A stretch of DNA of 58,753 nucleotides, the filler included, from Sphacelaria rigidula (lineage: Eukaryota), in the NCBI GenBank assembly GCA_964200075.2. It is 7 parts of 7 records of this genome, joined end to end, with 100 filler letters (N's around TTAATTAATTAA, not from the genome) between each part and the next. Parts side by side here need not be neighbours in the genome. Positions count along the whole stretch, not along the records: positions 1 to 8,308 come from CAXNAA020011575.1; 6 more parts are not named here. The stretch is one strand, 5' to 3'. Shown one piece after another: positions 1-57,740 of the stretch. How positions within the stretch are numbered: the first letter of the stretch is position 1; each line of letters begins with the position of its first letter. The notes beneath the pieces are model-generated. The model was not told the origin of the DNA, did not search any database, and saw only the letters and a program-made list of their open reading frames with translations. A program made the translations under genes and the position numbers.

Positions 1-799
1 GCGCGTCGGGCTCGCGGCTTCGGGTATTCCGAGTTGTGGTCGGAGGGTGCGTGTTTTGCGATGAGAGGAAGATGGCTGACTGTACAGTCTACGGCGTTGG
101 ATTCAAGCGTTCTTGCTCCAATCCGAAATCCGGTCGGTGTCCATCTCCGTTTCCGAGCCGCAAATTGCAGATCCGGCAACGGTCTGACGTTGCCGCCCCC
201 GCGTGATGCCGTTCGGGCTGGTGTGTCGGCTAGATGTTCACCCGTGTTTGTTGGATCTTCGTGGTGTCCGGCACACAAGAGATCTGTATGCATCGTTGGA
301 TCTTCCGGGTCTTCGGGCCAACCAACAGCGGGGGCTACACTCTTCTGGTCGTTGGGTTTCAGCCTTTTTTGGCGGGGTGCAGTTTTACCGAAAATGTTTA
401 TGGTTGCGACTGCTCGGCGTATTTGTGCCGAGACGGCGATACGGTCACCACTTCACAAAAAAAGGTCACCACTTGACAGAAAAGGGACAACAGTAGAACA
501 AAAAAGGATATATAATTTTTCAGCAGAGAGCAGGGTGTACCCTCCTGTTTTCCTTACAAAAAGGGGGTACTCTCACAGGCTCTCATTTTCGGCGCGGTAG
601 TTCAGCCCAGTAACACTTGTGAAAATGAAAAAAAAATGGTCGGATATGCTGCCCAGGGACCTTGGGCGTGGGGCTGGAGCGCTGGAACGTGTTTTCGAGG
701 TGCTCAGCCAGCGTGCAGCGCCGCGCCCCAAAGCGAAAAATGCGCTACCCGTTTTTGCTCCAAAAGCATAAGGGTCTACCCTTTTATGTATATTGCCCC

Positions 800-2282
800 A
801 GATACTACACAGTGAAAGCGGTCAATATGTGGATGATATATTTCAGTTTCGAAATGCACCTCCACCACGCATTATATGTACTCTGTAGTAGTTTGCCACT
901 GAGGCCCTTGATACCCCTCATTATGATATCGACGTGTCACTGAAAGCAAACGCCATTGATAAAGGCAAAGAGGAGCACACACACATGATGAATATTTGGC
1001 CAAGTGAAATCGAATGATCACAGCCACTCTCAATCGGCGCTCTACTGTCGGTTTCACAGAAACGTTGTTTATAGCAGTCCAGCCGACACCCGAAGAACTT
1101 TCCTCGTGGTCAGAAGTTTCTATGGACAGGACCGAGTCTTGTCAACGAAGGATTATCACGGCTGTTGGGTTCGCATGTCTCGTCGACGTTGAATAACCAC
1201 GACTGTTGAGTTCGCATGACCGTACAGTTTGATTTCTTTGACCACGACAGCAGGTCACGTGCTGAACAGGCATGGATATCTACTCTTTTCAACTTGTTAT
1301 CGACAGAGGTATATCCAACTTTGCTCCCGGTGTCCTGGTTTATTCACTGGCTCTGTGTACTATTTTCTAAAGTGAAAGTGATCGCGATTCATAGGCATGA
1401 CGTAAATATGACTGTTGAACGTATCACGTACGAAACAGGAAGGGATCCCACATCATTCGACTTGTGTTTGTTGCTGACTAAGGTCAGGGCAATGATAAAT
1501 GATTTTTAATTGCTTTGCTTTCATGTGCTCGTCACATTCGCTGCAACACCTCTGTCATTGCACTCTCAAATCGATGAGGATGCAAAGAAAACCACTCTAG
1601 AGGACCTTGCCGAGTTTGAGATACATCTATTGATAATTTGAACATGCTTTCGTGGACTGTTGAGTAGATATGACGGCGGTAGATGCTTCTTCCCCAACTA
1701 TTGTGATGCGTTGAACACCTGGTCAACACCCAGATGAACGTCTGTTGTAAAGATGATGAGTTGACTGTATTATATTAATAGCACGGTAGGTGCAGCCCTG
1801 TGTATTCAGGAAAATTTCTACCTCACCTGTTGATAGTCTGTCCATAATACAGGAGAGTGCATTCGTATTACTGATCAATGTACAAAAGGTGAAGCTCTGC
1901 GTGCAGAACTTCTTTAAACTGTTGCTACCAAGGTACACAGACAGTTCAACAAAGTCTCCTGTGATACGCAGTGTTTTCGTGAGCTTGAGAGTAGATACTA
2001 CGCAGTGACAGCGTAAGGCGGTTAATTAATGAATGATTTATTGCAAACCCTAAATGCACTACCACGGCGCACTCTATGCCATCTGTAGTAGCTTGCCACT
2101 GAGGCCCTTCATATCCCTCAGTATGATATCGACTTGTCCCTGAAAGCAAACGCTAGTGATAAAGGGAAAGAAGAGCACACACGGAATGAATACTTGGCCA
2201 AGTGAAAGCGACTGATCAAAGCTACTCTCAACTGGCGCTCTACTCTCGATATATAGCAGTCTAGCCGGCACCCGAGGAACTT
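800..2282 (+). pseudogene. Decayed coding sequence of unknown family containing two copies of a domain (~800-1100 and ~1960-2282)
   Basis: The diverged direct repeats translate to FATEALDTPHYDIDVSLKANAIDKGKEEHTHDEYLAK*NRMITATLNRRST and LATEALHIPQYDIDLSLKANASDKGKEEHTRNEYLAK*KRLIKATLNWRST. Many stops. A third copy lies on the minus strand at ~53345-53665. Confidence 0.55.
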
Positions 2283-2604
2283 AATCGATGATAATGCAAA
2301 GATTATCAGACGGTGAAGAAATACCCCGCCATGAACGGGCTTTTGTTAATCCGATTCCTTTTTTAAGTTTTGCACGATCTTGAGGAGGTGCTTGTGGTTC
2401 GGGATCGACACCCCGCGAAATAGAGCCAGTGTGGGCGACTTTCGATGGCCAGAACACGCGCCACCGGTATCACATGACCCCTAGGCCTGACAGGTGATGT
2501 ACCGCTGCACCTTCTTTGCGCACTGCAAATCAAAGCGCGGTATAAGATGCCTTGCCGCCAGAGAAAACTCGGCGATATTGGTGAAAATTGCCAAGTGATA
2601 CATG

Positions 2605-3660
2605 TACGTATATATATTAAAAGCAAACCACGCAGAAGGTATTGTTTTTCCAAAAGAGATTGCGCACGCTCATAACATAGCTTTTGTGCAGCCAACACGC
2701 TTGCGAAGGAATGTATTGAGCGTCTTCTGTATGTGGTGATACACCTCCCAATGGCGGATACTAGTTCCAATACACTTTCCAATCTTCATGTTGAAAATAA
2801 AAAGATGCTGCTACACCAATATGCATTGTGACCGTCGGTTCCCTCGTATATTGTCCGCCCAATATATATTGGCGCTTCGGGTGTGGAATATATTCAATAT
2901 ATATATATATATATATATTGACCTCATATGACAGCCAATATATTACTCGACAGTGTATATTAGCGCTTTATCGCACCAACATTGCTCGGCCGATATATGT
3001 TGAGGTGACGCATCTAATGGTTTATGATTCAGTCGAAGCTTCCTCTGTCTCGTAAGTCTGGGCACTTATGTGCGTTTAATCGTTTGGGTACTTCAACGTC
3101 GACGATCATGCTACGGTTGGATTCGTTAGAGAGATGCAGCGCAGAGGAAGCTGACGAGAAAAAACGAAAAAAAAAAACTCATGCTCATAACTAAAAGTAT
3201 GTCAAAGTATCTCCCATTATGACCCTTTTTACCATCACGAACATGTGGGAATATAATTGTGGTTTCGCGATTTTCACATTTTCTGGCCCATTTTTTGCGA
3301 TTTTTCCTGTGTTCCCGAGGCTCGTACTTTCCTTGGGAAACGAGCGAAAAATTGTCGTCTTTGGACCGACCTTTTTCTCGGCCACGCGGCTGTATGGGTC
3401 ATGTACAGACGTTGTTGGAAGAATGTTAGTCTACCAAAACAAACGCCAGCGAATGCAATATTAATGTCGAAAATCAAATATCACACCGTTAAGGACTCGT
3501 ACAACCGTAAGTGCCCAGACTTTGAAGACGGCGGAAGTATATATAGCTTATCGCGATCCTTGACGTATTGATCTATCTCGAATGCCATTATATGGCTCGC
3601 CCAATATACATTGATCACCCGACGCGTCGACATGTTCAGGGGGCAATATATATGTACATG
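2605..3660 (-). repeat. Inverted copy of the 42-43 bp repeat-spacer array, interrupted by a MITE
   Basis: 2605-3014 is the reverse complement of ~5002-5495, and 3538-3660 is the reverse complement of ~4886-4985, with the same spacers in the same order. Confidence 0.85.
3039..3537. mobile_element. Tc1/mariner-type (Stowaway-like) MITE, ~500 bp
   Basis: 32-bp TIRs CTTCCTCTGTCTCGTAAGTCTGGGCACTTATG / CGTAAGTGCCCAGACTTTGAAGACGGCGGAAG. TA follows the right end; no TA at the left end. It interrupts the array relative to the other copy. Confidence 0.75.
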
Positions 3661-4611
3661 TATCACTTTACATTTCTCACCATCTTCGCTGAGCTTTCTC
3701 TGACGGCAATGCATTTTTTTTCCGCGTTTTGTTCTGCAGCGCACTAAAAAGGCTCAGCGGTACATTAACGTTCAGGTTTGGGTGTCATCCGATACCGGTG
3801 GCGTGTTTTGTTCACCGAAAGTCGCTCAAACTGGCCCTTGTTCGCGGGGTGTTGATCCCGAACTGCAAAAGCCTGTTGAAGATCATGGAAAACTTCGAAC
3901 AGGATTACTTTTGGCGGGGTATTTTTGTGCCGTGTTTCTTCTCTATGGCGCGTTCTCGTTCATTTAGGGGCACGAATACACCGATTATGACGTCAACGTC
4001 TCGAGAACATGAGAGCAAAACAGTTGGAAACAATGCGACATTGCCTTGGTCTTATTCAGCAGTAGACCAAGGTCGTGCAATGGACCGCCGGCAGGTTGAA
4101 CAAGGCACAGCAGCACGGTAGCACAGGGATGTTTTGCCGCAAAAATAATCACCCCGTCGTAATACAAGGCCCGGTGATGTGGAAGTCACAGTGATGTACA
4201 TGGAAAGAAGAATGTTTCACGCATTCCAATATCCCGGGAAGTGTCTCCCTCTGTCATGTCTTTGTTGTACGACAGCTACGTCGCACTCTGGCACTGCGGG
4301 AACACCACACATGTCCTACGCCGGCGGTTCCGCCGTCGGTCTCCGTCCGAATGCCCATATTTCTGAACGACATCAGATGACACATGCGATGCTTTGTACA
4401 GCCACGATCACGGCTGTACATTGAGATACAACAGCCTCTCTCAACCATACGTTTTCGACTTGCGTCACCCTCGGGAGACCCATGCGCTGAAGGGGAACCT
4501 TGTCATAACATCTTGTTTGGTCCACGGTGTGGAAATATGCTTGGTTTGTGTTCTCTTGCTGAAATTCCCCCTCTGTCTCAACCCACCCATCAGCGAAATA
4601 CGTGGGACATA

Positions 4612-4659
4612 CCTTTATATTTACCGCGAAATCCGCCTTTATATTTACCGCGAAATCCG
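4612..4659 (+). repeat. 24-bp perfect tandem duplication
   Basis: CCTTTATATTTACCGCGAAATCCG occurs twice in tandem. Confidence 0.9.
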
Positions 4660-4885
4660 CTTTGCCGTTTGTGGCATGACGTTGATGTTTGCTTATGCCT
4701 ACAGGTTTTTCTCAAGGCCCATATTGAAGCGTTGTTATATTTTTCACCAAGGTACATCTTTCCCGTGCGGGTCCCTCTGAGCAACTCAACTAATCATGCT
4801 GTGATAATAACTCCTTGTGAGCTCATTTGGTGTTCGGCTCATCATCTCTTCTTGAACACGACCAAACCCTGGACAATACAACGTG

Positions 4886-6410
4886 AAATATATATTGCTC
4901 GCTCAATATGTCGATGCGTAGGGTGGTCAATATGCATTGTACCATCAATATATAAAGTCTCGCGACATGCAACATATATTGACCGAGTAATATATTACGA
5001 CATGCGCCACCTCAATATATATTGGCCGAGTAATATGTTGGTGCGGCACGGCGCCAATATATATTTGTCGAGTGATATATTGGCTGCCACACGAGGTCAA
5101 TATTTATATATATATATATATACATAATATTCAATATACTCAACACCCGAAGCGCTAATATATATTGCCGCCCCGATATGTCGTGCGTCAATGCGTCCAG
5201 TATATATTGGGCGGACAAGACACGAGGGAACCGACGGTCACAATACATGTTGGTGTAGCCATATATACATTGTTTTTCAACACGTAGGTTGGAACGTGTA
5301 TCAGAACTAGTACGGTGGGCAGTTCTATGATCACTGGCGCAAGTGGAAGATGTATAACTGCATGCAGAAAACGCTCGATACATTCCCCCGCGAGCGTGTT
5401 CAGTATATATTGGCTGCACAATAGCCATGCGATGAGCGTGCGCAATATATATTGGAAAAACAGTGCTTTTACATGGTTTGCGCTCAATGTATATATCATG
5501 GCAACAGTATGTTAAGCATCGCTTCGACTCGATATATCTTGACACTTCAATACATACACGGCCGGCATGCATGATATGTATTGCATGATTTGTTCCCGGA
5601 GCAAAGGCACGTCCCACATCTATTTCCATACATTATTTCATGATCATGACACGAGAAATATATATGTTGTTGCTGCAATATCTCCGAAGACATCTCAACT
5701 CAGTATATATTCGAACGACAGTATTTGCGCTCGCCAATGCAAAGTATTGGTATCATATTGGAACATCTTGTGTTGACCAAGGTATAAGCAACACAGCCCC
5801 GGTAACAACAGGGGCACCGAAAGACGCATATCGATCCGCGCTCTCTGTTGTCGAGATGTTTACCAAAGATATTACATGCTATGAAGGGGACGGGCGGCCC
5901 CGTAACAGTGGCGAGATGGGTATAAAAAAACACAGATACGGGGTCGCCTCTTCTGTCACCGTATTTCCTTACCAATGTGTATGTATATATATATATATCA
6001 AACGAATTCGACAACTCTTCATAGCGATGCACGCGAACTTCTGCCGCCCCCTTTGGAGCTTTCCCCAGTCTGCACGGGGTCCGGCATCCACCGCGTCTGG
6101 ATCTTTCTTGAAGGGTATGCCATACTTAAACTATTCTATGTATATATTGATCGGCCAATACATTGACACCCACGCAGACTGAATATATATTGACCAGTCA
6201 ATATGTTCTCTCCAATGCGACCCCAGTATATATTGGTCGTGCAATAAGCCTTCGCCCACACTTCCCCAATATATATTGATGGAGCAATATGTGTTCAACC
6301 CCACGATACCATGATATATCGGACGGGCAATATGTATGCAGTCCCATGACATCAATACATATTGGGAACGCAATACGTGTGCGATCCAAGGGCACCAATA
6401 CAGCTATATT
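4886..6410 (+). repeat. Periodic repeat-spacer array: CAATATATATTG-N6-CAATAT plus unique ~18-19 nt spacer, period 42-43 bp, ~24 recognisable units
   Basis: Palindrome starts at 4886, 4928, 4970, 5013, 5055, 5098, 5156, 5198, 5241, 5401, 5443, 5485, 5530, 5572, 5657, 5701, 6138, 6181, 6224, 6267, 6310, 6353 and 6396. The sequences between them are mutually dissimilar. Confidence 0.9.
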
Positions 6411-7844
6411 ACGCCATAGCCTTGGGCGTCGCTCCTACTGTACCCAAAATAGGAGAGGCACCTATTGCTTGCGTTTCCATACTGCATTCTCTTCTGAGTT
6501 TATCGTCAAAATCATCACGCTACGCTAGAGTGTTGTCGTTTCGAGCGCCCAAGACACGGCTAGGTTGTTCGTGCTTCGCGCACCCACACGCTAGGACTGT
6601 GACCCCGGAGCAGTCCCGATGCCGATACACCAAGCCCTGTGCTTCTCATCTGCACCACGTGGAAAATGGACGAACGGGCCACAGCTACTCCAGCCTTCGT
6701 AGATGCACAGCTCCGCACATTCATTGTATGGCCCGTCGTTATCCCCTGTCTCGCGACATGCCAAGGACTTGTGCCGTTGTACGCCGTTTGACGAGAGCAT
6801 ATTCTAGAATACTTGTTGCTGTGTTGAGGTGTTGTATCAGAATATTTCCGAGCCCAACACTACGCGAGCTACTTTGACTTCATTCCCCCCAGCCAAAGAG
6901 ATACAGGTATCAGTGCTTACATTCTGCGGACAAGGGGTCAGCAATAGAAGTAACTGCAACTTTGTTGAGGGGTGCATTTACGCAGACCTCCGTCCTTCAA
7001 AAGGTATCTCGCGTTTCGATACAGGTGGCGCCAGAACCGATTGATCTGAGCACCGCTTGCTGTTATCATACTGCCTGGCGAGGGCCGTATGGCGGGTGCA
7101 GCATCATGCACAGTTCCCCGGATAATGTCCACACCCGCCACATTCAGTGTGGATCACCCTTTGCCCACCCCCACAGATATGGTGATATCTCCCAACAGCG
7201 CGCGACAGTATGCTGAACACGCGATAAGTCGGCGTATGCTGCCCAACTCTACATGATCACCTGGCTGATGCGGGCTTCCGGCGACGAAACGTTAGTGCTA
7301 GGAAATATGATATCACTGAAATGAAGTGACAGTCCTGCCTGTGTGTTCCCCCAATGCGAGGTGTACAAAGCAGTGGTAGTTGGCGCGACATGAGAAACTC
7401 TGATGGGTGTAAACAAGATACGAGCGAACTCGGCACTCAAGATTCATGCGCATGTTCAGAGTTCAACGCCTCTTCCTTTGTTCCAGTCGTCCCGACGCGC
7501 TGCAACATGGCTTTAGTCGCTTCAGTCGTCCCACCGCGCTGCAATCATGGTATCGGCACTAGGCTTCTGTTCGATGAAATGCCCTCTCTCCTGCAGCAAT
7601 CGTGCTCCAGTGGCAATCCTTGTCACGTGATGACTCCACGGTTGGCTTGTCAGCCCACTCTAGTCCACACGGCTGTTTGCGACCAGAAAACCATGATGAC
7701 CGTTTACCCGCGTTTCACATGGGCACGACCTCCGGTTATCTTTGCTAGGTGATTGGCGCAGGCTGCTGTTGGATTTGGGGCGGTTCGGATCGCAGCAGCA
7801 GCAGTGACACTACCGCGGTCCCAAGCCCGTATCTGGTGTTGCTT

Positions 7845-8308
7845 CGAGGTTGAACAACGACAGCATCATATGCCGGAGCATTTATGAAAGTGGAATTCTG
7901 CGCCTCACACGTGTGGGCGGACATATTAGATGTAGTGAGCAGGTGGTCAGCAGGGCTGCTTCACCAAACCATCGTCCGGTGCAGCTAGTGGGAGGGAGGC
8001 GGAGTTCCGCGCCACACACACTCGAGCAGGTATGGTCGATGTGAAGAGCAAGCAGTGCGGCGAGGAGGGGTGCTCCACACACCCATCGTTCGGCGCAGCC
8101 GTTGGCAGGAAAGCGGAGTTCTGCGCCGCACACGCCCGAGCGCGTATGGTCTATATGAGACGTCAACGGTGCGGCGAGAAGGGCTGCTCCAAATCCGCTT
8201 CGTTCGGTGAAGCCGGTAGCAGCGAGGCGAAGTTCTGCGCCGCACACGCCCGAGCGCGTATGGTCTATATGAGACGTCAACGGTGCGGCGAGAAGGGCTG
8301 CTCCACAC
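7845..8308 (+). CDS. EsV-1-7 cysteine-rich repeat protein, truncated by the contig end; upstream repeats frameshifted, possibly a pseudogene
   Basis: 40-aa tandem units MVDVKSKQCGEEGCSTHPSFGAAVGRKAEFCAAHARAR and MVYMRRQRCGEKGCSKSASFGEAGSSEAKFCAAHARAR match the EsV-1-7 motif (C-x4-C-x3-PSFG...FC-x2-H...MV). The frame is open from ~7939. An earlier degenerate unit (KVEFCASHVWADILDVVSR) is in another frame. Confidence 0.85.
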
Positions 8309-8408
8309 NNNNNNNNNNNNNNNNNNNNNNNNNNNNNNNNNNNNNNNNNNNNTTAATTAATTAANNNNNNNNNNNNNNNNNNNNNNNNNNNNNNNNNNNN
8401 NNNNNNNN
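8309..8408. other. Artificial contig linker (N44-TTAATTAATTAA-N44); identical linkers at 16717-16816, 25125-25224, 33533-33632, 41940-42039, 50347-50446
   Basis: Six identical 100-nt spacers with stops in all six frames. The segments between them are 8308, 8308, 8308, 8308, 8307, 8307 and 8307 bp, as expected for length-sorted contigs. Confidence 0.97.
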
Positions 8409-8619
8409 TTCGGAATGGGAAACGCCGAGCACAGCGAGCAGCCGGGAATTCCTACGTTTGGGTACATTCTAGCCAATGTCGCCAATATGAGGCGCGTCAT
8501 GCAGCCTAAACCCAAACATTAGGCGCTGTATCGCCATTTGTTTCGTGACACGTTTGGGCTGGTTTTGGGGGGGGGCTATCGTAGAAAGCGTCATCCTTAC
8601 AACTAAAAAGTAGTTGCAT

Positions 8620-9095
8620 GGAACCACTGGTTCAATAACCTGTTCTGTGTGCGAACAACAGCTCGGTTAGGAGCCCATGCAACTACTTATTATGTACAAC
8701 CAACTATACGCATTTAGCAGCCCGTGCGGTAGTTGCGGGGTAGCCGGAAACCTGTGCAACTACTTGCGTACAAATAACCACTCAACCAGAAGCTCTGTAT
8801 CATGCATTATTGTAGCTGTGTCAACAACTACTGGGTCAGGAACAACTGGTTGCGTGCGAACAACTACTCTGCCAGAATCGCGTGCAGTAGGCGCGGGTAA
8901 ACACCTGCTGGGCCAAACATCTGTGCATTTGTTATCTACCAGTCATTGCTCAGTCAGAAACCTCTGCAACTATGTTATGATTAATTGCACGCGACTACTT
9001 GGTCAGAGGCCTGTCAACCAACTGCTTGCAACAATCACTTGATCAGAAACATCCGCACCTAGATAACTTCGTAAACAACTTACGGGTGAGAAAGT
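8620..9095 (+). repeat. Degenerate ~40-bp minisatellite (~11-12 units)
   Basis: Recurrent CAACTACT..GTCAGAAACC.GTGCAACTA-type units, e.g. at ~8825, ~8861, ~8950, ~8992 and ~9032. Confidence 0.6.
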
Positions 9096-9532
9096 ATATA
9101 ACCATTTTTCGAGAAAATCACTGCCTCTAAAAACTAACTGTAGTTACAACGAACTAAAGGTCTGAAACACTTGAGCTGTAGGAATCAAGGGTGATGTATG
9201 TTATGCAGTAGTCAGTATCGTGTGAGCTGTCGCCGCTGTCGCTGCTAATGCCGCAGCTGCTACGTGCGTTCATGTGAACGGGTACACTGAGTGAACATGC
9301 ACATGTGCGGGTAGATTTATGCTGACTTACGGGTACTGGTAGTCGAGTGTGTGTGACTGCCAGTCCATGCTCCGGGCGACTGCGTCACCGCCGCTAGCCC
9401 TGACTCTACATCTGATCCCTCTTTCCGATGACCTACTCTGTCAAGGCACTCTCCAAATGATGCAAAAGATGAAACTATCTGCCCTTCCCCACGGGCCACG
9501 GAATACACTAGTGTTAAAATCGGTTGGGCAAT

Positions 9533-11468
9533 ATGGCAGACCAAGGTGGTAGGCCTGCTCCAGTAGTCGGTGGGCAGGGTGTTAGTGGCCAATTGGGGAT
9601 GGTGACTAGCCAGCTGAGTTCCATGACTGAGCCACTGCGTGACTTACAGTCAGACAAAACTGCATTACGGGGTGAAGTAAATGACATTAGGGTAGTGAGA
9701 TAGTCCACAGCCGTTGAAACCAATGGCGTCCTCGATAGGAATGGTCCACAGAGGGAATCCAGAAGAAATATCAGTCCAGTAGAGGGACGAAATGCTGGAG
9801 TTCGATGGGACCGCCAGTACATCGGGACTCAAGCCGGACCGGGGGAAAGGAGCTCGCGACGCGGGGAACAACGGGGCCAGATACGACGGAGCTAGGGGCT
9901 TTGTCCCCGAGCGTGAGTCAGTCTACGTGAACGATGCAAGTGGGAATGTGTCAGGAGTTCCCGTTTTTCGACAGAGCGTCCCCAGACTTTCAGGGCAAAA
10001 CTCAGAGTTCGCACGGTTTAAACATAATAAGCTGATCAACTTCGCAAGCAGCGAAGGATCAGGGAAACACTCAGAGTTCGCACGGTTTAAACTTGAGCTG
10101 ATCAACTTCGCAAGGAGCGAAGGAATTGACTGGGTGTTTACCATGACCGGCGACAGTTCGCACGATGTGGACGTTGGCGACAATGAACTATCGCTGGGAT
10201 ATCTGGAGACTACATACGGGAAGGACATAGTGGCAGCCCAAGTGAGGGCGAGACGGATGATTGCTGGTAGTCTCGAAGGCAAGAGAGAGCAAGAGATACT
10301 GCTCAGACTTCACTCACCTGGTGCAGTTTGAAGAAAACTAGCAAATGCCTTCCGCCCCAAAACAAATGGGGCAAGAACCGCGTTGTTGGAAAAGTTTGAT
10401 GGAGTCAAGATTAGAGTCATCCTACGATAGGGGGGGGGGGGGGTATTTTGGGCCACTTCTTGCACGAAATTCCAAGTAAAATCATCCTTGAAAGAGGCAG
10501 CGGTTGCTCGAATGAGTTTGTTATCGATATATAACGCACGTTCATACCGATTAAAAGCGTTTTGAAACAAATACAAGCGCACAGCGAGTGTGGCAGGTCG
10601 TCTGGCACACTTTTGAGCCTCTTTTTTCGTGCAATCACATCCAGAAGCAATGGCTAGAGGATCGAGAGGGGCCGCTAACACGGGAGATTATGATTGCCTC
10701 GGTCCGAAAGCGCTTCGAGTCGGCCACTTTTAAAGGAGGAGCTTGCCCGGGGAAAGAAGTCGTCCCCGGGCGATCAGGCTCTCCTCGCCAAGGGTGGGAC
10801 CGGAAAACCGAGCGGTGCACACCGCAAAGGAAAACCGGGCAGACCCCAGGGCTCTGCTCAGAGAAATTGCGGGAGTCAGAATTCGAGTAACTCCGGGTCG
10901 ACATCGTCGGACGGAAAAGCGGCGACTGTGAAGGTGATCGGCTGCCACATTTGCGAAGAGGACACGACGCACCGTGCCAGGAACTGCCCGAAGAGATACT
11001 GCGGGAGGTGTTGTCAACAGGGGCACATGTTGTGGGAATCCTCGAGATCGACAGCGAAAAAAGAAGATGCCGCGATGGCGATAGGTGTGGCCGACGACAG
11101 CGATGACGCCTTCGTTATCTCGGGCGCGGACGGGGAGGCTTTCGCCTCTTTCGACACAACCATCTACGACGAAACAGGCGAGTACGCATTGTGTGTTGGG
11201 CAGGGGGGTGATGAACAGCAGGGTAAGAGCGAACCGTTGGTGTTTGACACGGAGGCTACAAATAATTTCTCCCCTGATTCCTGTGGGATGACGGAGTACA
11301 GAGAGTGTCAGGGTAGGGTACTACGGTGCGCGGGTGGTGGTACTTACTCGATCGTAGGCAGAGGAAATTTGTCTCTTGCTTTCAGATCTGACGGACAGGA
11401 TGTGGTGGTCAGATTAATGGACGATGATCATGTACCAAATGTCCGTCATCACCTCTTGTCACTCACAA
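9533..11468 (+). mobile_element. Ty1/copia LTR retrotransposon, decayed gag (two Zn knuckles) plus protease; continues at 15890-15950
   Basis: Gag-like VPRLSG..EFARFK...; CHICEEDTTHRARNC and CGRCCQQGH knuckles; protease LVFDTEATNNF...GRGNL...HVPNVRHHLLSLT. The frame resumes after the nested element as TRIQKSGHTYTGFRVG. Contains stops, frameshifts and a MITE at 10414. Confidence 0.85.
10414..10631 (+). mobile_element. Sola2-like MITE left end inserted in copia gag
   Basis: Terminus GAGTCATCCTACGATAGGGGG...TATTTTGGG; body homologous to 20716-20930; same terminus at 50313. Confidence 0.65.
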
Positions 11469-14400
11469 TGTCGACCTAGCCACCATCGTTATCTAAGGTC
11501 AGGGACAATATAGGTGGAGTTGCGGGTCTGATTGCCGGACTCTGTGACGGTGACCTCCATGACGAGTAGAGCCGGTTTTGCTACTCTGGTGGAGAGAGGC
11601 TATGGTCCTGTTCTCCTGTACTTTGCTGAGGGTTAATATATGATTAACTAAAGCTGCTGAAGTTCATGTGCCCGTGATGGGAGGAGCCCACAAGGTGATC
11701 TAATCTTGAGTGACAGAAATCTACAATGCATGTTCATTAAGTCCGCTGATGGCGGTAGATCCGCTGAAAAACAGCTGACACTTCAGGATAGGGAAGTCTG
11801 CAGGCCTGATCAGTTTGCAGCAAACAAGACCAGCTCAAGGCGTGTTAACGTCGCGAGGAGTTGGAGAAGTAGAGACGAGGAGGTTCTGAGGGAGTGCTAG
11901 GGTCGGCTGTGGTATTGCTCGTGCGAGAGGTGCGGGGGATTGACCGACAGCTGGCGAGCCTGTGCGCGTTCCAGAAAAAACGGCGCAGTTACCGTACTGC
12001 CTGGTGGAGCCAGCGAGGTTTGCTTATTCCACGCTTGGCCAGGTACGGCCAGGAAGAGGAGTCTAAGGACTTCATACACGTGGTGAGACCTGCGTGAGGA
12101 AGAGGCGCTGTGGCCATTTTCGTTTGGTGGTCAAGCAGGTCTTGGTACAAGGAGAGGGAGGCGACTTCGTTTTTCAAAAAGGCGTGTGGAGTGCTGTACT
12201 GCTGACCGAAATGTACGAGGTGCAGGAGTATGTCGCCGTGGACGGCCATGTTGTTCGTGCGCCGCAACAGTATGTTGTCATCGATAGTCGCGTTGTCCGT
12301 GTACGATTTCTGGATATGCCGTACTACGGTCGCAAGTTCTCAAGTGAAAAATCTGCTCAGTTTCGGCGGAAGTATGAGGACTACCTTCGTGAGGTGCACG
12401 CAACGAACGAGCGTCAAGCACGCTGGCACGTTGTTGAGGAGCCAGCGGTCTCTGAGCTCATGCCCACACATATCGAGAACTGTATATGTGACACATTTTT
12501 GGATGGTGCTAATGATGTTGGGCAAGAGAAATTGCTCTTTGCGCTGCGCAAGCATGCATCTCATGCATCGCCGAGTGTGGTGCAAGATAGTGTGAAGGTC
12601 GGCGGCGGTGGAGACAGGCACGACATTTTGATGGGCAAGAGGGCGACACAACATAGGCTTGTCCGAGTGCGCAGGCACGAGAGTGCTAGAGGCGTTGCCG
12701 CTATTGCCGTCAAGAAGCAAGCCGGACAGAAGGTGGCGGCTGTAGCGAGTATGGGTGATACTGCTGCTGCTTCTGGCGATGTTGAGAGAGCAGGACCTAC
12801 ATGGGCCAATGAGCAAGTACTGGTGGGTGGAGGTCCCAGTTGATTTTTGCCGCCAAACCAGCGCGTAGCTGAAGATACTCCTTGCATGCTCGAAGCTGCA
12901 GGGGGTGTTATTCGCGTATGGCGAGCGAGCAGGGTGAGCAAGGAGCTTGCCGTGCTCATAGTTAATCTATCTGTGCCAGTTACATGGCGGAAGATCGATT
13001 AGATGATGCGCAGGGGTGTCTGCTTGAAGGACAGGTGGATGCCGGGTTGGAGGAATTGCCGCCGGACCAGCGCGTAGCTGTGGACACGCCTGATATGATC
13101 GAAACAATAGGAGCGTGTGACCCGCGTGAAGCGGGTACACAGAGCGAGCCGCAAGCTCGTGATGCTGTTAGCGATCATCATTCTGACGGCGACAACGAGC
13201 ATCGCGTGGTGTTGGGGTGGTCGTGTGCACTGCTGTGTGCATGGACAGGTTTGGCGTTTTTGGCGGCGTCGATTGCGGTGTCTTTGCCGCTGTACGGTGC
13301 TGGAGATGGATGGCGTGATGCCATCGGGAGGTGTTGCTGTGCGGGACTGCATGGATGTTCCGGTTTTGCCTCTTACTTCCTCTGTAGAAGCGGCTGAAGA
13401 ATGAGCGTTCGTGAATGCGCAAGCATCTGTGGGGGCGGAGGATCTGTCGCATTGGTTTGGCGATGCGAATATACCTTTGAGCAGCGTGTTGAGCTACACC
13501 ATGGGGGTGCCAGGTGTAGCAAGACTGAAGGTGCAAGGAGGGAGTGTCCGAGAGGAAAGGCTGCTCTACGCTGTGCACGGGGTTGTGGTTCGAGTACTGC
13601 TGTTTCTCAGGAGCGGGCTGGAGGACTACAAAGAAGGCATTGCCTGACGTGTTTGCTGTTGTGGTGAGCGCCGAGTGGGGTACTGATGTTGAGGAGCAAG
13701 TGCTGTGGTGACTGAGTGCTTGTTGAGAATGAGGAAATACATTACGACTGGTATTCGCGAATCGTTTTGAGAATGATTCCAGCTTGTTATTGTGCGGTTT
13801 GTGGTCATGCTTGCGCATGAAACATGGTTGTTGAGCGAATATGATCGTATCGCGTGTGCAGGGAAAAACTCTGGCGTACACGTGGGTATTTGGCATGTGT
13901 GTGTTACGCTGATCTGGTTGGCACGGACGATGCATGGTGTTTGCTGCGAGGAAGGTGGCATTGCATGTGCTGAGTGAAATATTGACATGCATGTGCGGAT
14001 TTCATACGCTAAGTGGAAATTTGGCAGGCATGTGCGAATGTTTGCTCGAATGGCACTGATATGAATGGTATCTGGTGACGACCTAGGGTGGGGCAGTTTT
14101 CAATATACTGCTGTATGCTAAATGAAGTGAAGCTCGTATAATCTTGTTCGCGCAGAACACAGTCTAATCAGTTTTGTGCGGTTTGCACGTACTGACTGCA
14201 GGATATATGGATTGCTGCTGTTGGCGTGAAAATGAGCTGAGAGGCATGAAATGCGCAGGCTCGTACTGACAGTAGGAGTCGTTGACACCTGCTGTTAGCG
14301 TGAAAATGAGCTGAAAGGTACGATATGCGTAGGCTCGTCGGACGTGAGCAGGTAAGACGCGAGTGCTTCCGGTGGTGGAAGGTAAAGACATGATGCGCGC

Positions 14401-16716: not shown

Positions 16717-16899
16717 NNNNNNNNNNNNNNNNNNNNNNNNNNNNNNNNNNNNNNNNNNNNTTAATTAATTAANNNNNNNNNNNNNNNNNNNNNNNNNNNN
16801 NNNNNNNNNNNNNNNNTGTCCTTCTGTCCCTTTCGCTTTTTCCCTATCCATGCGTACTCTTCAACTTTGCATCCTATTTCTACCCCCGTAGAAAGTGAG

Positions 16900-25065: not shown

Positions 25066-25548
25066 CCCGCGCGCCGCACCCAGCGGCGCGGCGGAAACCG
25101 CGCGCACCAGCGGGAAGCGGACTGNNNNNNNNNNNNNNNNNNNNNNNNNNNNNNNNNNNNNNNNNNNNTTAATTAATTAANNNNNNNNNNNNNNNNNNNN
25201 NNNNNNNNNNNNNNNNNNNNNNNNCAGGGTGGCTTCTCGCGTGCGGGCTTTCAATTTCGAGAGTACCCCCCCCCCCCCCCCCCCCGGGACGGGGGGAAGA
25301 CATGTAAAAGGTTTTTGTGTTTGTATGGAATGAGCGCCGGAATGTTGGAGGTGTCTCTATTAGGAGTAAGAATGGCGCTCCGTCTCGAGAGGAATACGTG
25401 GTCAATGGTCATACGACTAAGGCAAGCATCAAATAAGTACGCCCCCCCCCCTCCCCTCGTCACCCCTCACCCCTCACCCCTCACCCCTCACCCCCACGTC
25501 TCCCTCGTTCCCCGAACACATTCGTCTTGTCTTGGATAAATGGAACAG

Positions 25549-31400: not shown

Positions 31401-33014
31401 TTTGTTAAAGTACTAATTCGGATCATGAGCTGGCTAATTCGCCCCCCCCCCCCCCCCCCCCTCTTTTTTTCTTTTTTTTCCTGTTTCAGCACTCACCCGT
31501 CCGCATCTCGAGTTTAGTGTGAANNNNNNNNNNCCCTGCACGAACGCCCCGTTGTTTTTTTATTTTTTTTTTTTTTTTAAACTCCAACTGCCCATACGCA
31601 GCGGGCGAATTCCCCCCCCCCCCCCCCCCCTTTTTTTTTCCACGTTTGCCTCGTACGGCGCCTGACGCCGAGCACACGGAGTTGTGCGAAGAGAGCTTTT
31701 TGTCTCCTCCAACCCCACCGTCACGTATTCTGTGTTCTTGGACAACGGGTCTGAGGGGCGTTCTCGATGAGTATTTTTTGAGCTTGCTCATGAGCTGTTG
31801 GACGTTTGGAAGATTTGACACACTGGACATTATTTGGTCAATAGTTTGAATAGACAACGAAATATACTGCGTCAAGTATGAGCCTATCGCAACTATTGCC
31901 CATATACTGCCCAATGTGTGTGCAATATGCCTCTACGCAGTACATTTCTTGCCTAATGCAAGTCATGACTATATTCTGTCGAAGGTAGGGGAAGATTTCC
32001 TGTCTTTTCCCCGGTTGTTTGTTGCGTTTCGGAGAAATATAATGCGGACTATCATTTGCCACAGACCGCGGCCTGGGTTTGTGCACTCGTTGCTACAGGC
32101 GTCGCGGGAATCACATATCATGATATTTTCTTGTTACGTTACGTGTATGGATATTGTGAACATGGTGTGTTGATTCTACCGCCCCCCCTCCCCCCCCTCT
32201 CACTATGTTTCTGTTCTCTGCCGTTCTTGTCCTTGCTTTATTCATCGTTTCATTAGAGAGGTATGAGAGGGGGAAAAGACTGGAGATTTATTTTGTAGCA
32301 TCAGAGGAGTGCAGTCCGAGTGTTCTGTTGCTGCGGTGGTTGGATATGAAAGACGTTTTTTATTTTTGCTTTCGATTTTTCGTTTTCGTTTCTGATTTTT
32401 TGTCGTTTTGACCTTGTGGTGCATAATGGATCACATCGCGGAAGTAATTTTAATATTAACCGAAACATACAACAATAACCGCACGAGTGCGGAAGATGCC
32501 GCAGCTTTAGCCGTGTGATAAACGGATACGGGATGTGTCCTGTCGTGTCCCGTCGGTCGCCCCACAAACAAATTTGTCCACTCGAAAAAAATATATAGAA
32601 GAGAAAAAGCAGTCTCCGGCCATGATGTGTGGCCTCGCTCATCCTGTAAAAATATCTATCCGCAACCTGTAAAATCCTGTGTGAAGAGTGAACTCTGACA
32701 AATGAGAAGAGTTTTTTACGCGAATAAGCAGAGGTGGAATTGTTCGGTATAAAGCCGGATGATACGGCGAACAAATTTTTGGCCTACAGATTATTCGCTT
32801 GTGGGAGGTCGACAAGGTCTCCACAAGTGTTCGATCTCTCTCTCTCTCACGCACACCCCAACTGGCCTGTGGCAGACTCTTGTGGTCGGGCGCCTGGATG
32901 GTCAGATGTTTCGTGTTGGGTGAAACCAAGGATGAATAACACCCCCCAAGTTGATATTGGACCATCAGATGTTATTTTTGCCGCAGCGCACCGTCCTCGC
33001 TGGCATGTGTGTGA

Positions 33015-33380: not shown

Positions 33381-34260
33381 AAACACCACTTGAGAAAGTA
33401 TGTGAAAGCACGGCAGGATTACTACTCCAACTTGCTGGGGATATCCCGAATGAATTTGCAAACAACAGCCGATCATCTATGTTGAGGATGGTGCTTTTCA
33501 TTGAGGATGAGAACCCGGAGGATTAAAATCTTNNNNNNNNNNNNNNNNNNNNNNNNNNNNNNNNNNNNNNNNNNNNTTAATTAATTAANNNNNNNNNNNN
33601 NNNNNNNNNNNNNNNNNNNNNNNNNNNNNNNNAGAGAACAGTAGTAGCGGTGACGGGAACATTGCCCTATTTTTTCAACATGTTTTCAGCGCACAGAGGC
33701 ACGTCCTGTCCAAAAGGAGAGGTAGAGAGAAATCGATTTTCGCGTTGGCGACAGGCAAGAAGAGACCACGGGATTTCTCCGCACGTTGATGCTCTGGCAT
33801 ATGAAAAAATTTGCACATGCTGGTAAGATCAAGGATGCCAGTCTCTCGAGAGTTTGGTAATCGCCGAGCGGGGACACACAAAGGGCACGGGCGAGGAGCT
33901 TCCTCTCTGTCGTTGCTNNNNNNNNNNCTCTCTGGTGATATCGTCATCGACACGCGTGTACACCGCATTTCGTTGGGTGCACCTAGCCAGAGTTGCCTAA
34001 CCCTTGGACCGCGGTGCCCGTAGTCCATCTGGACCACGCGTGTACGTTTTTCAAGTGAATATTGATGCCGATTCAGCAGGTGACCTACTCTCGCGGTCTA
34101 ACCGGTAACTCCTGCTGCGGAGGTTTGGGAAGGAAGATACTTTCGCTCTGTCTTACTCTTCCGTATCTTCCCTGCAATAATAGAGAAATGGGACTTCAAC
34201 CTCATCTTTTGTTTCAACCCCAAGAATTAGAATCGGCTGTTAAGTGAAGAAATGGAACCG

Positions 34261-41939: not shown

Positions 41940-42119
41940 NNNNNNNNNNNNNNNNNNNNNNNNNNNNNNNNNNNNNNNNNNNNTTAATTAATTAANNNNN
42001 NNNNNNNNNNNNNNNNNNNNNNNNNNNNNNNNNNNNNNNGATCTCACCCACATACACCGAAAGGTGTAGACTGGTGCCCAGAATAAATGGGACGACAACG
42101 CAACACAACACAACACACT

Positions 42120-48035: not shown

Positions 48036-51000
48036 GCATTTCACATGCGATAAAATTCGTGCATAATGATTTTTACGAGGATTCTATATTCTGGCCGTTA
48101 GCGTTCCTGGGGGAAAATTACCGGCCGTTAGTGCGCTAATGCTACTGCTTCATGCTTCACTCGACGTCGCTTTCCCTATCTTGTTTGTCATTAGTGCAGC
48201 CCAGTCCATAGCTGCAAGTGCTACCAAAGAGCATTCGAGGTGCAATTGTCCACGGCGCTGTAGCTGCAAGCGTCGTTTTGTCTACACGTACATGTGAAAG
48301 ATCGTCAAAGGATTACTGGAGCGCCGGAGGTGGAATACTCACCGTTCAAGAGTTCCATCCCTCTTCTCGTACCTACCTGCACACACAGAAGTCTAACAGC
48401 CATCTATCAAGAAGAAGGCGGTTGAGCGGATTGTTTTGGGGTCTGTATCAGAATGTCAGAATGAGTACTCCCCGACCCCGTTGACTCTTGCAGGGATCGA
48501 ACTCCTGCGTCCAGACGGCGCGACGTGCTACAGGACAACGTGGTTATGGCCACTAGATACCCAGTATTTGAAGTCCACTGGGCAGCATTCTATGAAGTGA
48601 CACCAGTGATTAAATATGTTAAGTGCACACTAACTAATGATGCATTTGATCCGTACGAGTCACACTATTCAGTTCGGTGTACACTGAAACCAGCATATTT
48701 TATATGTGGATAATCTGCTCGGTCTGACGTGAATGTTGGGTGCTGCGTGATCCTCCTCACTTCCGGTTCTCGCATGCAGGAGCCTTGAACACGGGTTGGG
48801 ATCAGGAGGGTGGTGCTAAGAATCGACTCAAGGCAGCGGTAGACTCGTTCAAGTTGGAAGGGCTTGTCGTCGATGGAGTACGACTGGGCTAAGAAGCCTA
48901 GGGACCGGGCGATATAGGATCCAAGCCATATGGCAAGCATCCGTAACATCCAAGGAGTATTATTTTTCGATTTCAGCGCCGACATTTCTAACGCCAAAGT
49001 TGATGCGCAAAGGGTGCTTTCACAGTAATGGCATACCTAATCTCCATTGCTTCCATCTGTACGGCACCGAGGAAGACATATCGTACAATCCAACCCCTCC
49101 ACGGTCCTCCCCGCACCCGCCTTACGGTCCTCGTGACAGGATGACGGATGACGGAAATAAAGTAGGTACGACAAGAGGCAAAAGGCTCACAGTCCGAATC
49201 ACCCCCTCGATACCTATGAGGCACCCGTGGCTATCTCTGGAAGTGGCGATACCAGAAAATGAAGCGTCGTCTCTTAGGCTGTCATCCATTGCATGATAAT
49301 TAGTACAGGAGGCAGCTCGCCCTTCATGCGACTGACTCGCCGAACACATCACGGCGCGTCGCGCTTGGTGATTGGCTCCGCGCGTGGTCCGGCAAAAACC
49401 CGGCGTGCCCCGTCCCGACTTTGTATGGATGCGAGGCCAATGGTCATCACTGCAGCATGCAAGATCATCAACACACCCCACGCCTCCCCTGCTCCCCCCC
49501 AACAAAGTTGAAAGTGAGAAAATAATTTGTAATTGTTTTTTGTGGGGTGGCTTGCCGCAAAAACTCTTCAAAAATATTTTAACTACTCCAAGTGCGCTGG
49601 GGTACACACCTGTTCCACCCACGCTATTGATTTAAACGAATCGGCTCGTGAGTTTATTGTATGTGCTATACCGTATTCCAATTTCACGAAGTGAAACTAG
49701 TTTCTGCTGCGGGTAAAAATTAGACTAACCGGTTTTCTGCGACTGCATTTTTGCGACAGAATTTCGGCGACTCCGTTCTTGCGACATTTTTTTCCCTAGA
49801 TTTTCCACTCTAAAACCCCTATTGATTTCGTTTTTTTGCGGATAACTTTGTCAAACAGATACCAAACGCATCTTGCTGCAAGGGGCACCTGGACATATAG
49901 CTGTCGCTGCTGCCCACAAAGTATCACCCTCCAAATCGATGTCTTGAGTGAGAACGCCCAGCTTTTGATGCCCATGTACGAGGAAGGATGATCTACATCT
50001 AGTTTCATGCTCCAAAAGGTATCCAGGGGGCAACATCCCCGTACAGACAGAAGCAAGGCTAGCGGATCCTACGTCCTGACAGTCGAGCAGCCAGCAAAGT
50101 GGTTCTGGTAGTGTCCTTGTAGCGATATCGACTTACAGTGCACTCCTGATTTACAGTGCACTGGAGCAGAGTTTGCAGGTGAATATTTCATACGTCGGAC
50201 GAGCACGAGTGTGAGTGATTGCACTCGCGCTCGTCGGGCTGCTCGTTGGTCGTAAAAATTAATAGGTCGAGCACTCGAGTCATTGCTCGTTGTGGAAAAA
50301 AATAATAGGGTGGAGTCATCCTACGGTAGGGGGGGGGTATTTTGGGNNNNNNNNNNNNNNNNNNNNNNNNNNNNNNNNNNNNNNNNNNNNTTAATTAATT
50401 AANNNNNNNNNNNNNNNNNNNNNNNNNNNNNNNNNNNNNNNNNNNNATTACACAGACCGTGGATCCGCTTGGACTAACGACCGCTACCAGACCCGCCGCA
50501 TCTCTCAACCTGCGTGCAGATCTGGGTTCCAACCTGTACAAAACTTCTTGTCGATAGGACTCGGGACTGGTCATTTTGGGGCCAATCCCCTGTCAAAAGG
50601 GGATTGTGAAAAATGGGAATCCCCTTCGTTAACCCTTTTGGAACTCACAACGGAAAATTGATCATTTGCAATTGACGGTTTTTGAGCAAGATATGGTTGA
50701 TGGTTCACAGCTTAGACGCAACAATATTCGCCCAATGCGTATTTTTCAGACCCGTGCGGGTGACAAGTGGAACAAGAGAAGGTTTCTTATTTTCTCATTG
50801 CGGCGAGGTGCAGAACCCGTCGGCGTTTTTTTTCTACACTCGTGAGCTCCTTCCCCGACCACAGTGAGCGGCAATGAAGCATGCTTCCCGTCTGACCTGC
50901 ACGCCCTTCCCGGTGCAGTTTATACTCTTTGCAGCGTCATAGCAATAAGGGCAACGCCGATGGCACATTCGCCATATTTATGAACTGGCGGTGTAATACA

Positions 51001-55877: not shown

Positions 55878-57604
55878 ATGCCTTTATCCCTTGAGACACT
55901 GCAAGAGCTCGAGTAACTGTCAAAGCTGAAAGGGAGAGGTGTCATTCTTGATCGACAGTTCTAAACCCTCAAAGAACATATCAAGGCCGGCAACTGCCTC
56001 ACGAAGGGACAGTGGGAGGCCGTCGAGTTGACGTGGGGTTTGAAAAGCTACGGCGTCTTTCTTCTCGGAAGAAGGGTGGGAAGCCGAGATTGATGGGCAA
56101 ATCCGGGAGATCATCAGCAGCGCTCGCCCTTCGCTGCTGTCACAGCAAGCTGCTGGCGCGCTAGGCGCACCCTGGACGTCACGGAGGCGGCCACCTGCTG
56201 CAGCGGATCGCAGGACTGTGGATCGAGGGAGGGAAAGCAAGAAGAGAGCCGCCGCAAACACCGTCGGCGGCAACATCATGAACGCCTTCGCTCTTGGCAG
56301 CGGACAGCCGATGAGTTCACCCTTGGAAATAATTATGTACAAGCTGTTCTTGGGTCGCCGCAAGAGGAAGCTGAAGGTGTCGACCCTCTGGCTCACCGTC
56401 ACGTTCCGGAAGCTGCTGCAGGAGAAGTGCCCTACCGATAACCGGGCGGCGGAGTTTCGCCCGTCATTCAGGTGGATGGAAAAGTGGGCAAAGAGACACA
56501 GCGTGGTACAGCGGCGCCGGACCAACTTGAAGACCAAGTCCGTCGAGGAACGCCTGCCGCAAATCCAGCGGTTCCACCGGAGGTTTAGCGAGCTGCTACA
56601 AGAGGCGGTGCGCCGCACGGGGAGCATCTTCCCTGAGGCTGCACCGCTGTCTTCGGGTGAGACCAGGCTAGAGAAGTACGGGCAGTTCCAGGTGGATGAG
56701 CGTTTGGGCGTGGATGAGGTGCCTTTGCTGTTTGTGAACGGGTTGACATCGACGTGGGAAAAGGAAGGGGCGACGCGTGTTGCCATCAGCCAGCCCTTCG
56801 CTGGACTGGAGAAGAGGCAGTGCACCATGAAAGTCATCTTTGGTCCCGGAAAGAAGCTCATGCGGATTGCGCTCATTTTCCGAGGCACCGGGAGGCGGAT
56901 CTCGCGGGTGGAGAAGGCCGCGTACCACAAGAACGTGGACGTCTTTTTCCAGAAGAAAGCGTGGGCCGACCAGAAGTTCTGCATGGAGTGGGCCAAGAAG
57001 TCCTACCGCCCGAGCTTGATGCGCGGGAGGAGCCAGCTGCCCCAGGAGAGGGCGCTCCTTCTCATGGACAACTTGCACGCGCAGACGACGCCGGAGTTCA
57101 AGGGATATCTGGCGAAGCACTGCAACACGCTCGCGTGGTATTTCCCGACGAACATCACGGACAAGCTGCAGCCCGTGGAAGCAGGAGCCGGACGCATGCT
57201 GAAGGTGGAGATTGGCAAGCTACAGGACGCGTGGCTTGACCAGTCGGACAACGTTGAAAGGTGGGAAAGCAACTCGTTGACGGCATCTGACCGACGGGTG
57301 CTGATCACGCAATGGGTCGGAAAAGCCATGGAAATTCTCGACAAACGCGAGGAGTACCGGTTTCGCCTTTTCGAAAAGTGTGGCATGGCGATGACTGCCG
57401 ACGGCTCAGGCAACGGCCGCATCAACTTGGAGGGTTTGGAAAAGCCGTACACCTCCATGGGCGAGGACTCGAGCGACGACGAGGGACCCTCACAGACTGG
57501 CAACGAAGGGTCCGGGGGGGGGGGTGACCAGAGGGGGGGGAATGAGGGGGACCAAGGCGGGGAGGGCATGGAGGACGGCGATTCCAACGACGAAGACAAC
57601 GACG
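55878..57604 (+). CDS. pogo transposase exon 1 (CENP-B-type HTH plus DDE_1); the 5' part has two premature stops and a frameshift
   Basis: LEIIMYKLF..RRKRKLKVS...FRPSFRWMEKWAKRHSVVQRRRT (HTH_Tnp_Tc5-like); GVDEVPL, QKKAWAD, LLLMDNLHAQ, FPTNITDKLQPVEAG; acidic tail. Confidence 0.9.
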
Positions 57605-57740
57605 GCAAGTCGGAATTTCATCGAGTCTCCCCCCACAAATTTGTTGTTGTTGTTGCTGTTGCCTTTGAATCCACTGATATTTGTATGGGTGGCAATACGT
57701 TTGATAACGTTATGTGGTTTGCAAATGCCGCTCGTTGCAG

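Follow-up and report, generated by a model that had tools for sequence, protein, structure and literature searches.

The periodic array at positions 4886–6410 of the window analysed (58,753 nucleotides, filler included, from the brown alga Sphacelaria rigidula) is most probably, at a confidence that we would put at about 0.6, part of a ~600-bp module (4888–5495, with further blocks to 6413) of an old and very abundant interspersed repeat family of the nuclear genome, represented by dead and neutrally decaying copies. The family itself can most plausibly be regarded as a non-autonomous DNA transposon, of the foldback or MITE kinds that bear tandem repeats, with phased putative binding sites. 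The DNA is periodic, conserved in its motif alone, dispersed in multiple copies, decaying neutrally and, in one copy, nested. The window consists of seven ~8.3-kb pieces joined by N44-TTAATTAATTAA-N44 linkers, and the array lies in piece 1 (1–8308), which supplies 8.3 kb of true context.

The original prediction had offered two readings of the array, as phased protein-binding sites for a transposase or recombinase, or as a guide-RNA-type array. The former gives the better fit to a motif that was kept, spacers that decayed and a high-copy repeat, features from which we infer the binding itself; the latter is not supported, given spacers that were inherited with the module and the absence of targets and effector in the window and piece searched, and of any Rfam family on the piece.

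Units, period and motif of the array

A search for the 12-mer with up to 3 mismatches, N6, and CAATAT with up to 2 mismatches returned 19 unit starts within 4886–6353, and 13 of the 18 successive intervals between them measured 42 or 43 bp, a regularity reached by none of 20,000 random placements. The core unit took the form CAATATATATTG-N6-CAATATRT, followed by ~17 variable nucleotides. All four units quoted in the original prediction (6181, 6224, 6267 and 6353) read as given there, and the spacings it reported were reproduced: successive starts at 6138, 6181, 6224, 6267, 6310, 6353 and 6396 follow at intervals of exactly 43 bp, and those at 4886, 4928, 4970, 5013, 5055 and 5098 are separated by 42–43 bp. 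The phasing it described across 4886–6410 is real, but the implied continuity is not, the array being divided into three blocks with non-array DNA between them (5261–5400 and 5746–6137).

The first block (B1, 4886–5260, plus strand) forms the initial part of the module, is colinear with an inverted copy on the same piece (copy A, see below), and holds units at 4886, 4928, 4970, 5013, 5055, 5098, 5156, 5198 and 5241, that at 5098 being overrun by a (TA)n microsatellite within the array (5100–5130) which is identically placed in copy A (2897–2918). A non-array linker of the module (5261–5400, plus strand), which alignment and BLAST indicated to be kept in copy A at about 2696–2809, separates B1 from a degenerate second block (B2, 5401–5745, plus strand) with units at 5401, 5443, 5530, 5658 and 5701, within which homology to copy A stops at 5495. 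The non-array segment that follows (5746–6137) contains a (TA)n run at 5980–5998 and is itself repeated in the genome (summed depth of 13,077 in run X1, bin 5818–6094). The third block (B3, 6138–6413, plus strand) comprises six units spaced at exactly 43 bp and, at 6396, a partial one; it is here that the high-copy repeat ends. Unit orientation was identical in all blocks of this copy (copy B), and a shared orientation of B1 and B3 is not what opposite, inverted ends of a single TIR element would display.

With up to 2 mismatches allowed, the window contained 27 occurrences of CAATATATATTG, where 1.81 would be expected, and none of 100 shuffles reached that count; 24 of these matches were concentrated in 2817–6364, and the motif was also present beyond 4886–6410, at 2817–3002 and 3602–3655. 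With 18 units placed in register, columns 1–12, 19–23 and 26 carried 0.8–1.9 bits each and the others roughly 0.0–0.8, against a random column mean of 0.13 bits and a 99th percentile of 0.51. The high-information columns 19–23 and 26 identify the second site as CAATATRT, a fuller form of the half-site CAATAT that had been correctly recognised beforehand. The core can alternatively be parsed as the 12-bp palindrome CAATATATATTG overlapping an 8-N6-8 inverted repeat, ATATATTG-N6-CAATATRT. The conserved part is restricted to these 12 + 8 positions and is degenerate, a perfect 12-mer being found in 3 of the 18 units. Overall, 20–21 specific positions were kept, including the non-TA flanks CAA/TTG and the second site 6 nt away, while 22 positions were near random; the GC content of the motif was 24% versus 60% for the spacers.

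Tandem Repeats Finder did not report the 42–43-bp array at a minimum score of 30, a silence consistent with so little of the unit being conserved. That result, together with blocks of at most 9 units and a spacer identity between units of 29%, led to the rejection of ordinary satellite DNA. A centromere satellite was likewise rejected, since brown algal centromeres are described, in the part of the source available, as mostly without satellite DNA (bioRxiv 10.64898/2025.12.07.692804) and the blocks here are short and degenerate.

The variable parts had been held to share no similarity, a view that comparison of the spacers did not sustain. Mean pairwise identity was 6.35 of 22 positions (29%) versus 5.70 in shuffled sequence, with 1 of 1000 shuffles reaching that value, and neighbouring spacers were identical at 8.58 of 22 positions (39%) versus a null of 6.06, which none of 1000 shuffles reached. 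This faint likeness, strongest in neighbours, indicates an origin of the array in the tandem duplication of a single unit, and to judge from the sequence the spacers seem to derive, by decay, from one ancestral unit of which the motif alone was preserved. After duplication of the unit the spacers would have drifted to near randomness while the AT-rich motif was held. An outcome that the original prediction had itself named as adverse, namely spacers that are decayed copies of one 43-mer, is thereby approached.

A second copy on the same piece and the wider repeat family

Alignment demonstrated that the module at 4888–5495 (copy B) matches, in colinear order, the reverse-complemented stretches 3653..3538 and 3038..2609, so that removal of 3039–3537 restores the colinearity of copy A (2609–3655, minus strand) with copy B. 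The corresponding BLAST matches paired 4888–4931 with 3653–3610 (84%), 5002–5167 with 3013–2860 (81%), 5193–5312 with 2875–2759 (83%) and 5410–5495 with 2695–2609 (80%). The two copies differed by one indel of exactly one 42-nt unit, positions 5156–5197 of copy B being missing from copy A. Four of the 18 spacers were matched at up to 3 mismatches at the corresponding place of copy A, one of them perfectly. The claim that ~18–19 nt are unique in every unit is contradicted by this colinear copy and its matched spacers, and also by the at least 90 contigs per sequencing run described below.

It was apparent from the aligned copies that motif and spacers had diverged to the same extent, with 130 of 160 motif positions identical (81%) as compared with 162 of 196 spacer positions (83%; Fisher p = 0.78). 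Equal divergence of the two indicates that constraint acted in the active lineage and ceased after insertion; such constraint, followed by its loss in inserted copies, is the signature to be expected of a cis-acting site in a mobile element. Given the contrast between motif and spacer conservation among units, the motif would have been under selection in the past, although the motif might instead owe its conservation to the way in which the palindrome mutates or recombines, and not to protein binding.

The anatomy of copy A is foldback- or MITE-like, amounting to about 1.1 kb without the nested insert. It is flanked by a left inverted arm D (2311–2615, plus strand) and its counterpart, a right inverted arm D (3646–3936, minus strand), BLAST aligning 2356–2615 with 3904–3646 at 77% identity and the alignment extending to about 2311/3936. 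The insert itself (3039–3537) is a 499-bp element bounded by 30-nt inverted repeats that are 83% complementary. Joints apparently linking opposite strands (2547/3735 and 2395/3874) were discounted as evidence, being most simply explained by contigs of other copies that switch between similar arms. No inverted arms were found in the flanks of copy B, where local alignment scores equalled those of shuffles, and this copy runs on instead into further array blocks. The module ends inside TA-rich palindromes (ATATATATTG ... CAATRTATAT), a position which renders a target site duplication of TA, of GTAC or of 8 TA-rich bases indistinguishable. CACTA elements end in CACTA/CACTG and have a 3-bp TSD; no CACTA-type terminus was seen at 2311, 3936, 4886 or 6413, these being provisional boundaries.

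Contigs of three DNA-type runs (X1–X3), among which is a metagenome, were compared with the piece at ≥80% likeness, and diverged contigs piled up about a thousand-fold over the array. In X1 the summed contig depth, which is not a copy number, was 112,281 over 4987–5263, 52,424 over 5264–5540, 64,140 over 5541–5817 and 58,667 over 6095–6371, with about 10,000 over the nested insert. Comparison depths in the same run were about 400–520 for the unique-looking interval 6926–7756 and about 66 for an exact single-copy contig (4420–4917). At the right edge (~6413) depth dropped from the last of the array values, first to 2,851 and further on to about 450, and the interval 6414/6419–6770 recurs in other contigs whose upstream sequence is different. 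In X1, 14,823 of the 18,816 contigs were less than 95% alike.

The majority letters of the family were informative with respect to the motif. At 4934 (G>A) and 4935 (C>T) they convert CAATATGCATTG to the consensus, at 5175 (G>A) they change CGATAT to CAATAT, and at 5219 (G>T) they change CAAGAC to CAATAC; the family letter at 5175 was carried by 90, 94 and 97 distinct contigs in the three runs. That the majority letters repair deviations from the motif identifies the module as one decayed member of a large, old family. In a further run (X6), tentatively taken to be of RNA type, a diverged copy was represented by a single contig of 411 nt that covered 5023–5262 and carries no weight as evidence of expression. 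A location of the array in the subterminal repeats of an already described DNA transposon had also been named in advance as an adverse outcome, and it too is approached: the repeat family is transposon-like, although no match to a described family was obtained.

Alternative explanations and the searches bearing on them

An unlikely but serious competitor regards the array as a minisatellite carried passively inside an interspersed repeat and devoid of any binding function. The palindromes would be sites of slippage or unequal exchange by which the array lengthens and shortens, and those processes together with (TA)n dynamics, as opposed to selection for a protein, would keep or regenerate the palindrome. 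Unit number does differ between copies, as indicated by the 42-nt indel and by one contig that skips 6128–6181, and a (TA)n run lies within the array. Precedents can also be cited: array-length change in the clam element DTC84 is proposed, in the portion of the account available, to have its hotspot in a palindrome located close to every junction between units (PMC3879986), and the tandem repeats borne by the Tetris element can self-amplify according to an extract of its description (PMC4079207), which would fit the armless copy B. Slippage, however, homogenises whole units, whereas the retention of 20–21 positions against 22 that are near random points to a site-specific constraint.

Considerably less probable is a reading of the units as iterons, or as the core sites of a recombinase, in an element that integrates or persists as an episome; a tyrosine-recombinase element and a replicon of viral descent would be examples. 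In such an element ATATATTG-N6-CAATATRT would provide two inverted binding arms flanking a 6-bp spacer at which crossover or unwinding takes place, and would be repeated as a replication or partition platform. The unit is indeed readable as 8-bp inverted arms with a 6-bp variable spacer, plus a third arm, and such an arm-spacer-arm layout is reminiscent of the core sites of recombinases and also of the repeat families with palindromic sites that occur at viral origins. DIRS/Ngaro elements are, moreover, common in Ectocarpus according to the available part of a survey (PMC12477816). Against this, no recombinase, replication or viral gene was found on piece 1, and diverged copies stacked about a thousand-fold are more readily expected of a transposon than of a provirus.

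The viral collection was equally unhelpful to an iteron or recombinase reading, pattern scans, which the original prediction had proposed for phaeovirus genomes, yielding single, chance-level matches only. The pattern TATATATTG-N30-31-CARTATATATTG was present at 4 loci in viral_contigs, with one match at each, and at 39 in metagenome_contigs, none of which was BLAST-similar to 2301–6500; motif counts in these 43 loci ranged from 1 to 7, the higher counts representing unrelated 21-bp or irregular repeats, and two loci whose sequence was inspected (L012 and L028) proved unrelated. A single-unit pattern gave 6 loci in viral_contigs with one match each, a number by which alone they were judged. 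The 21-mer identical in copies A and B was found 0 times in viral_contigs and 0 times in genome_contigs. The CAATATATATTG string was absent from the papers searched; the curated Ectocarpus TE library (supplements of PMC12477816) could contain a related consensus.

A CRISPR- or TIGR-type guide-RNA array, with two variable segments per unit and a transcript processed to unit length, is scarcely credible. Its attraction lies in the formal alternation of conserved and variable segments at a strict period, which is the only likeness, and in a plus-strand RNA fold of 6138–6410 with z = −2.96 (minus strand, z = −1.21), although pairing of the repeated palindromes would be expected to produce that value. 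CRISPR arrays are characterised by near-identical direct repeats of ~23–55 nt, whereas here a degenerate 12 + 8 positions are conserved; by unique, unrelated spacers, whereas here the variable segments have been copied with the module to other loci, recur in at least 90 contigs per run and are faintly homologous to one another, most clearly in neighbours; and by linked cas genes, of which none was found in the 8.3-kb context. Between copies, furthermore, decay has been equally fast in the conserved and the variable parts, and the setting is a eukaryotic nuclear repeat undergoing neutral decay. TIGR-Tas systems possess a linked Nop-domain Tas effector and reside in prokaryotic or viral hosts; no protein family was found on the piece and the host is a brown alga. 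Target-like matches to spacers elsewhere in the window numbered 1 for the 18 spacers at 3 mismatches, and 1 for 18 shuffled spacers.

The gene and RNA searches conducted on 1–8308 bear on both of the preceding alternatives. None of its 13 ORFs matched Pfam, in agreement with the earlier statement that no effector gene is visible on the contig. A 206-aa frame across the module (5012–5632, minus strand) had no homologue at E ≤0.01, and the long open frames over the array are attributable to a stop-free motif combined with GC-rich spacers. Rfam at E ≤1 returned only mir-310 at 2862–2945, outside the array, at 22.6 bits against a gathering threshold of 48 (E = 0.29), a level consistent with chance. 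Neither the 8.3-kb piece nor the contig tables gave any sign of an autonomous partner, a transposase gene or an empty site, a negative that weighs against the preferred reading, as do the armless copy B and the shared orientation of B1 and B3. A different piece of the window contains, at 56044–57810, a pogo-like DDE_1 frame with best matches of 66–77% identity in Ectocarpus and a eukaryote set, in agreement with a brown algal host; the runs containing the stretch bear the labels 'organism A' and 'algae metagenome'.

Proposed origin of the array and its relation to known elements

On the preferred reading, a decayed non-autonomous transposon, tandem duplication of a 42–43-bp unit would have built the array, and all that the active lineage retained of each unit would have been a composite site of 26 bp (the palindrome overlapping the 8-N6-8 inverted repeat). 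Copy A (2311–3936) carries the array between its ~300-bp inverted arms, and another transposon would have landed inside it at a later date. The putative sites may load several copies of a mobilising transposase or an accessory DNA-binding protein, and multiple loading could both give specificity and aid the pairing of ends. A period of 42–43 bp corresponds to four helical turns, and would place all of the sites on one face of the DNA, an arrangement that would favour cooperative loading and end pairing.

Many short-motif copies split by unconserved DNA also characterise the subterminal regions of CACTA (En/Spm), hAT and Mutator elements, where a subterminal protein-binding motif is needed in cis by non-autonomous derivatives; the En/Spm protein TnpA binds a 12-bp motif, and Hermes binds subterminal repeats. 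By way of contrast, the motifs in those elements are irregularly spaced and of mixed orientation, while the units described here are strictly phased at 42–43 bp in one orientation.

[quoted passage not shown] The family resembles Foldback, Galileo and Tetris in being non-coding, multi-copy and modular, with rearranged forms and with inverted arms round copy A; its tandem repeats bear a short recurring site as in Galileo (PMC3688188, as excerpted), and array-only derivatives occur as in Tetris (PMC4079207, as excerpted). Dispersal in multiple copies was evident from the two copies on the piece and from at least 90 contigs per site in each of three runs. It differs from these elements in that the array lies between arms that are 77% identical rather than inside both of them, copy B being armless, in its 42–43-bp units with non-conserved spacers, and in its brown algal host.

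Further likenesses connect the array with DTC84 or pearl elements and with DINE-1/HINE elements (non-autonomous Helentrons). As the extracts of their descriptions indicate, tandem-repeat MITEs may combine a microsatellite with a palindrome at unit junctions (PMC3879986), and HINEs possess 13–15-bp subterminal inverted repeats and a 3' stem-loop, and insert in T-rich sequence without a TSD (PMC4067079). A central core-repeat array joined to a microsatellite is present here as it is there, and a unit-junction palindrome, inverted-repeat flanks, high copy and variable unit number are likewise shared (PMC3879986 and PMC4067079, both as excerpted). The ~300-bp inverted arms found here nevertheless differ from the 13–15-bp subTIRs of HINEs (PMC4067079, as excerpted), HINE-type terminal features were not found at the provisional boundaries, and the core repeats of DTC84 are described in the available portion of the source as variants of whole units rather than as conserved in a motif alone (PMC3879986). 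DNA transposon families and their non-autonomous derivatives are abundant in Ectocarpus, where 94 families are unclassified, according to the available part of the survey cited above (PMC12477816). By analogy, the array may function much as repeated binding platforms do in transposons of the foldback type and in those with subterminal repeats, and it is assigned to no single superfamily.

As a tentative and doubtful extension, the family may be an undescribed brown algal mobile element whose composite sites, exactly four turns apart, serve a multimeric transposase or a tyrosine-recombinase-like protein that polymerises along one face of the DNA, and it may represent a new or atypical superfamily. 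Were that so, no described subterminal repeat region would equal the array in regularity as a 'zipper'.

With respect to the preferred reading, the principal correction is that an apparent eukaryotic CRISPR/TIGR layout is most probably a fossil transposon module, and that a simple check, seeking the 'spacers' in other copies, serves to expose such layouts. The difference in conservation between motif and spacers serves to define a candidate protein-binding site of 26 bp, together with a high-copy family for brown algal repeat libraries, and if a partner protein is found the four-turn phasing would offer a neat model of cooperative end recognition.

Composition of the window and open frames in other pieces

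Linkers of the form N44-TTAATTAATTAA-N44, located at 8309-8408, 16717-16816, 25125-25224, 33533-33632, 41940-42039 and 50347-50446 with a spacing of 8,407-8,408 bp, divide the window into seven separate pieces of ~8.3 kb rather than a single contiguous locus, and genes carried by the other pieces are consequently not neighbours of the phased palindrome array (4886-6413). Two additional gaps of 10 N each are present at 31524-31533 and 33918-33927.

One such piece contains a 588-aa open frame (56044-57810, + strand) with a DDE_1 transposase domain of the pogo/Tigger type. The frame shares 77% identity with a eukaryote protein and 66% with one from Ectocarpus annotated as 'C2H2 zinc finger protein'. 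A scan of the window for the array's palindrome motif, CAATATATATTG, recorded none near this frame. A further open frame (10694-11479, + strand) is probably a retrotransposon remnant, its weak match to Pol_BBD, the retrotransposon Pol beta-barrel (E = 9.3e-06), being under the cut-off (26.3 bits versus 27).

Tandem repeats on the array's piece

A short distance upstream of the array, a perfect 24-bp tandem duplication is present at 4612-4660 (CCTTTATATTTACCGCGAAATCCG ×2), and three runs assembled an exact 498-nt contig over the stretch that contains it.

At 7952-8308 lies a tandem repeat with a 114-bp unit (3.1 copies, 82% matches), truncated where the piece ends. Summed depth over this repeat, which is the total for placed contigs and not a copy number, was 28,614 in X6, a run only guessed to be RNA, versus 54,787 in the DNA run X1, or about half; relative to DNA depth, the X6 signal here was far above that at any other place on the piece.

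Other repeats on this piece

Copy A, the inverted second copy of the array module (2609-3655, − strand), is interrupted within one of its palindromes by a 499-bp element (3039-3537) with 30-nt terminal inverted repeats that are 83% complementary. This element, probably a MITE, is itself repeated (X1 summed depth ~10,000).

Another very abundant repeat is represented by direct copies at 815-1100 and 2015-2282, 81-90% identical and separated by 1.2 kb, and at 2082 around 100 contigs per run depart from the window sequence. The family, also strong in X6, the run guessed to be RNA (depths 5,719-11,191), is possibly of the SINE/LINE-tail type.
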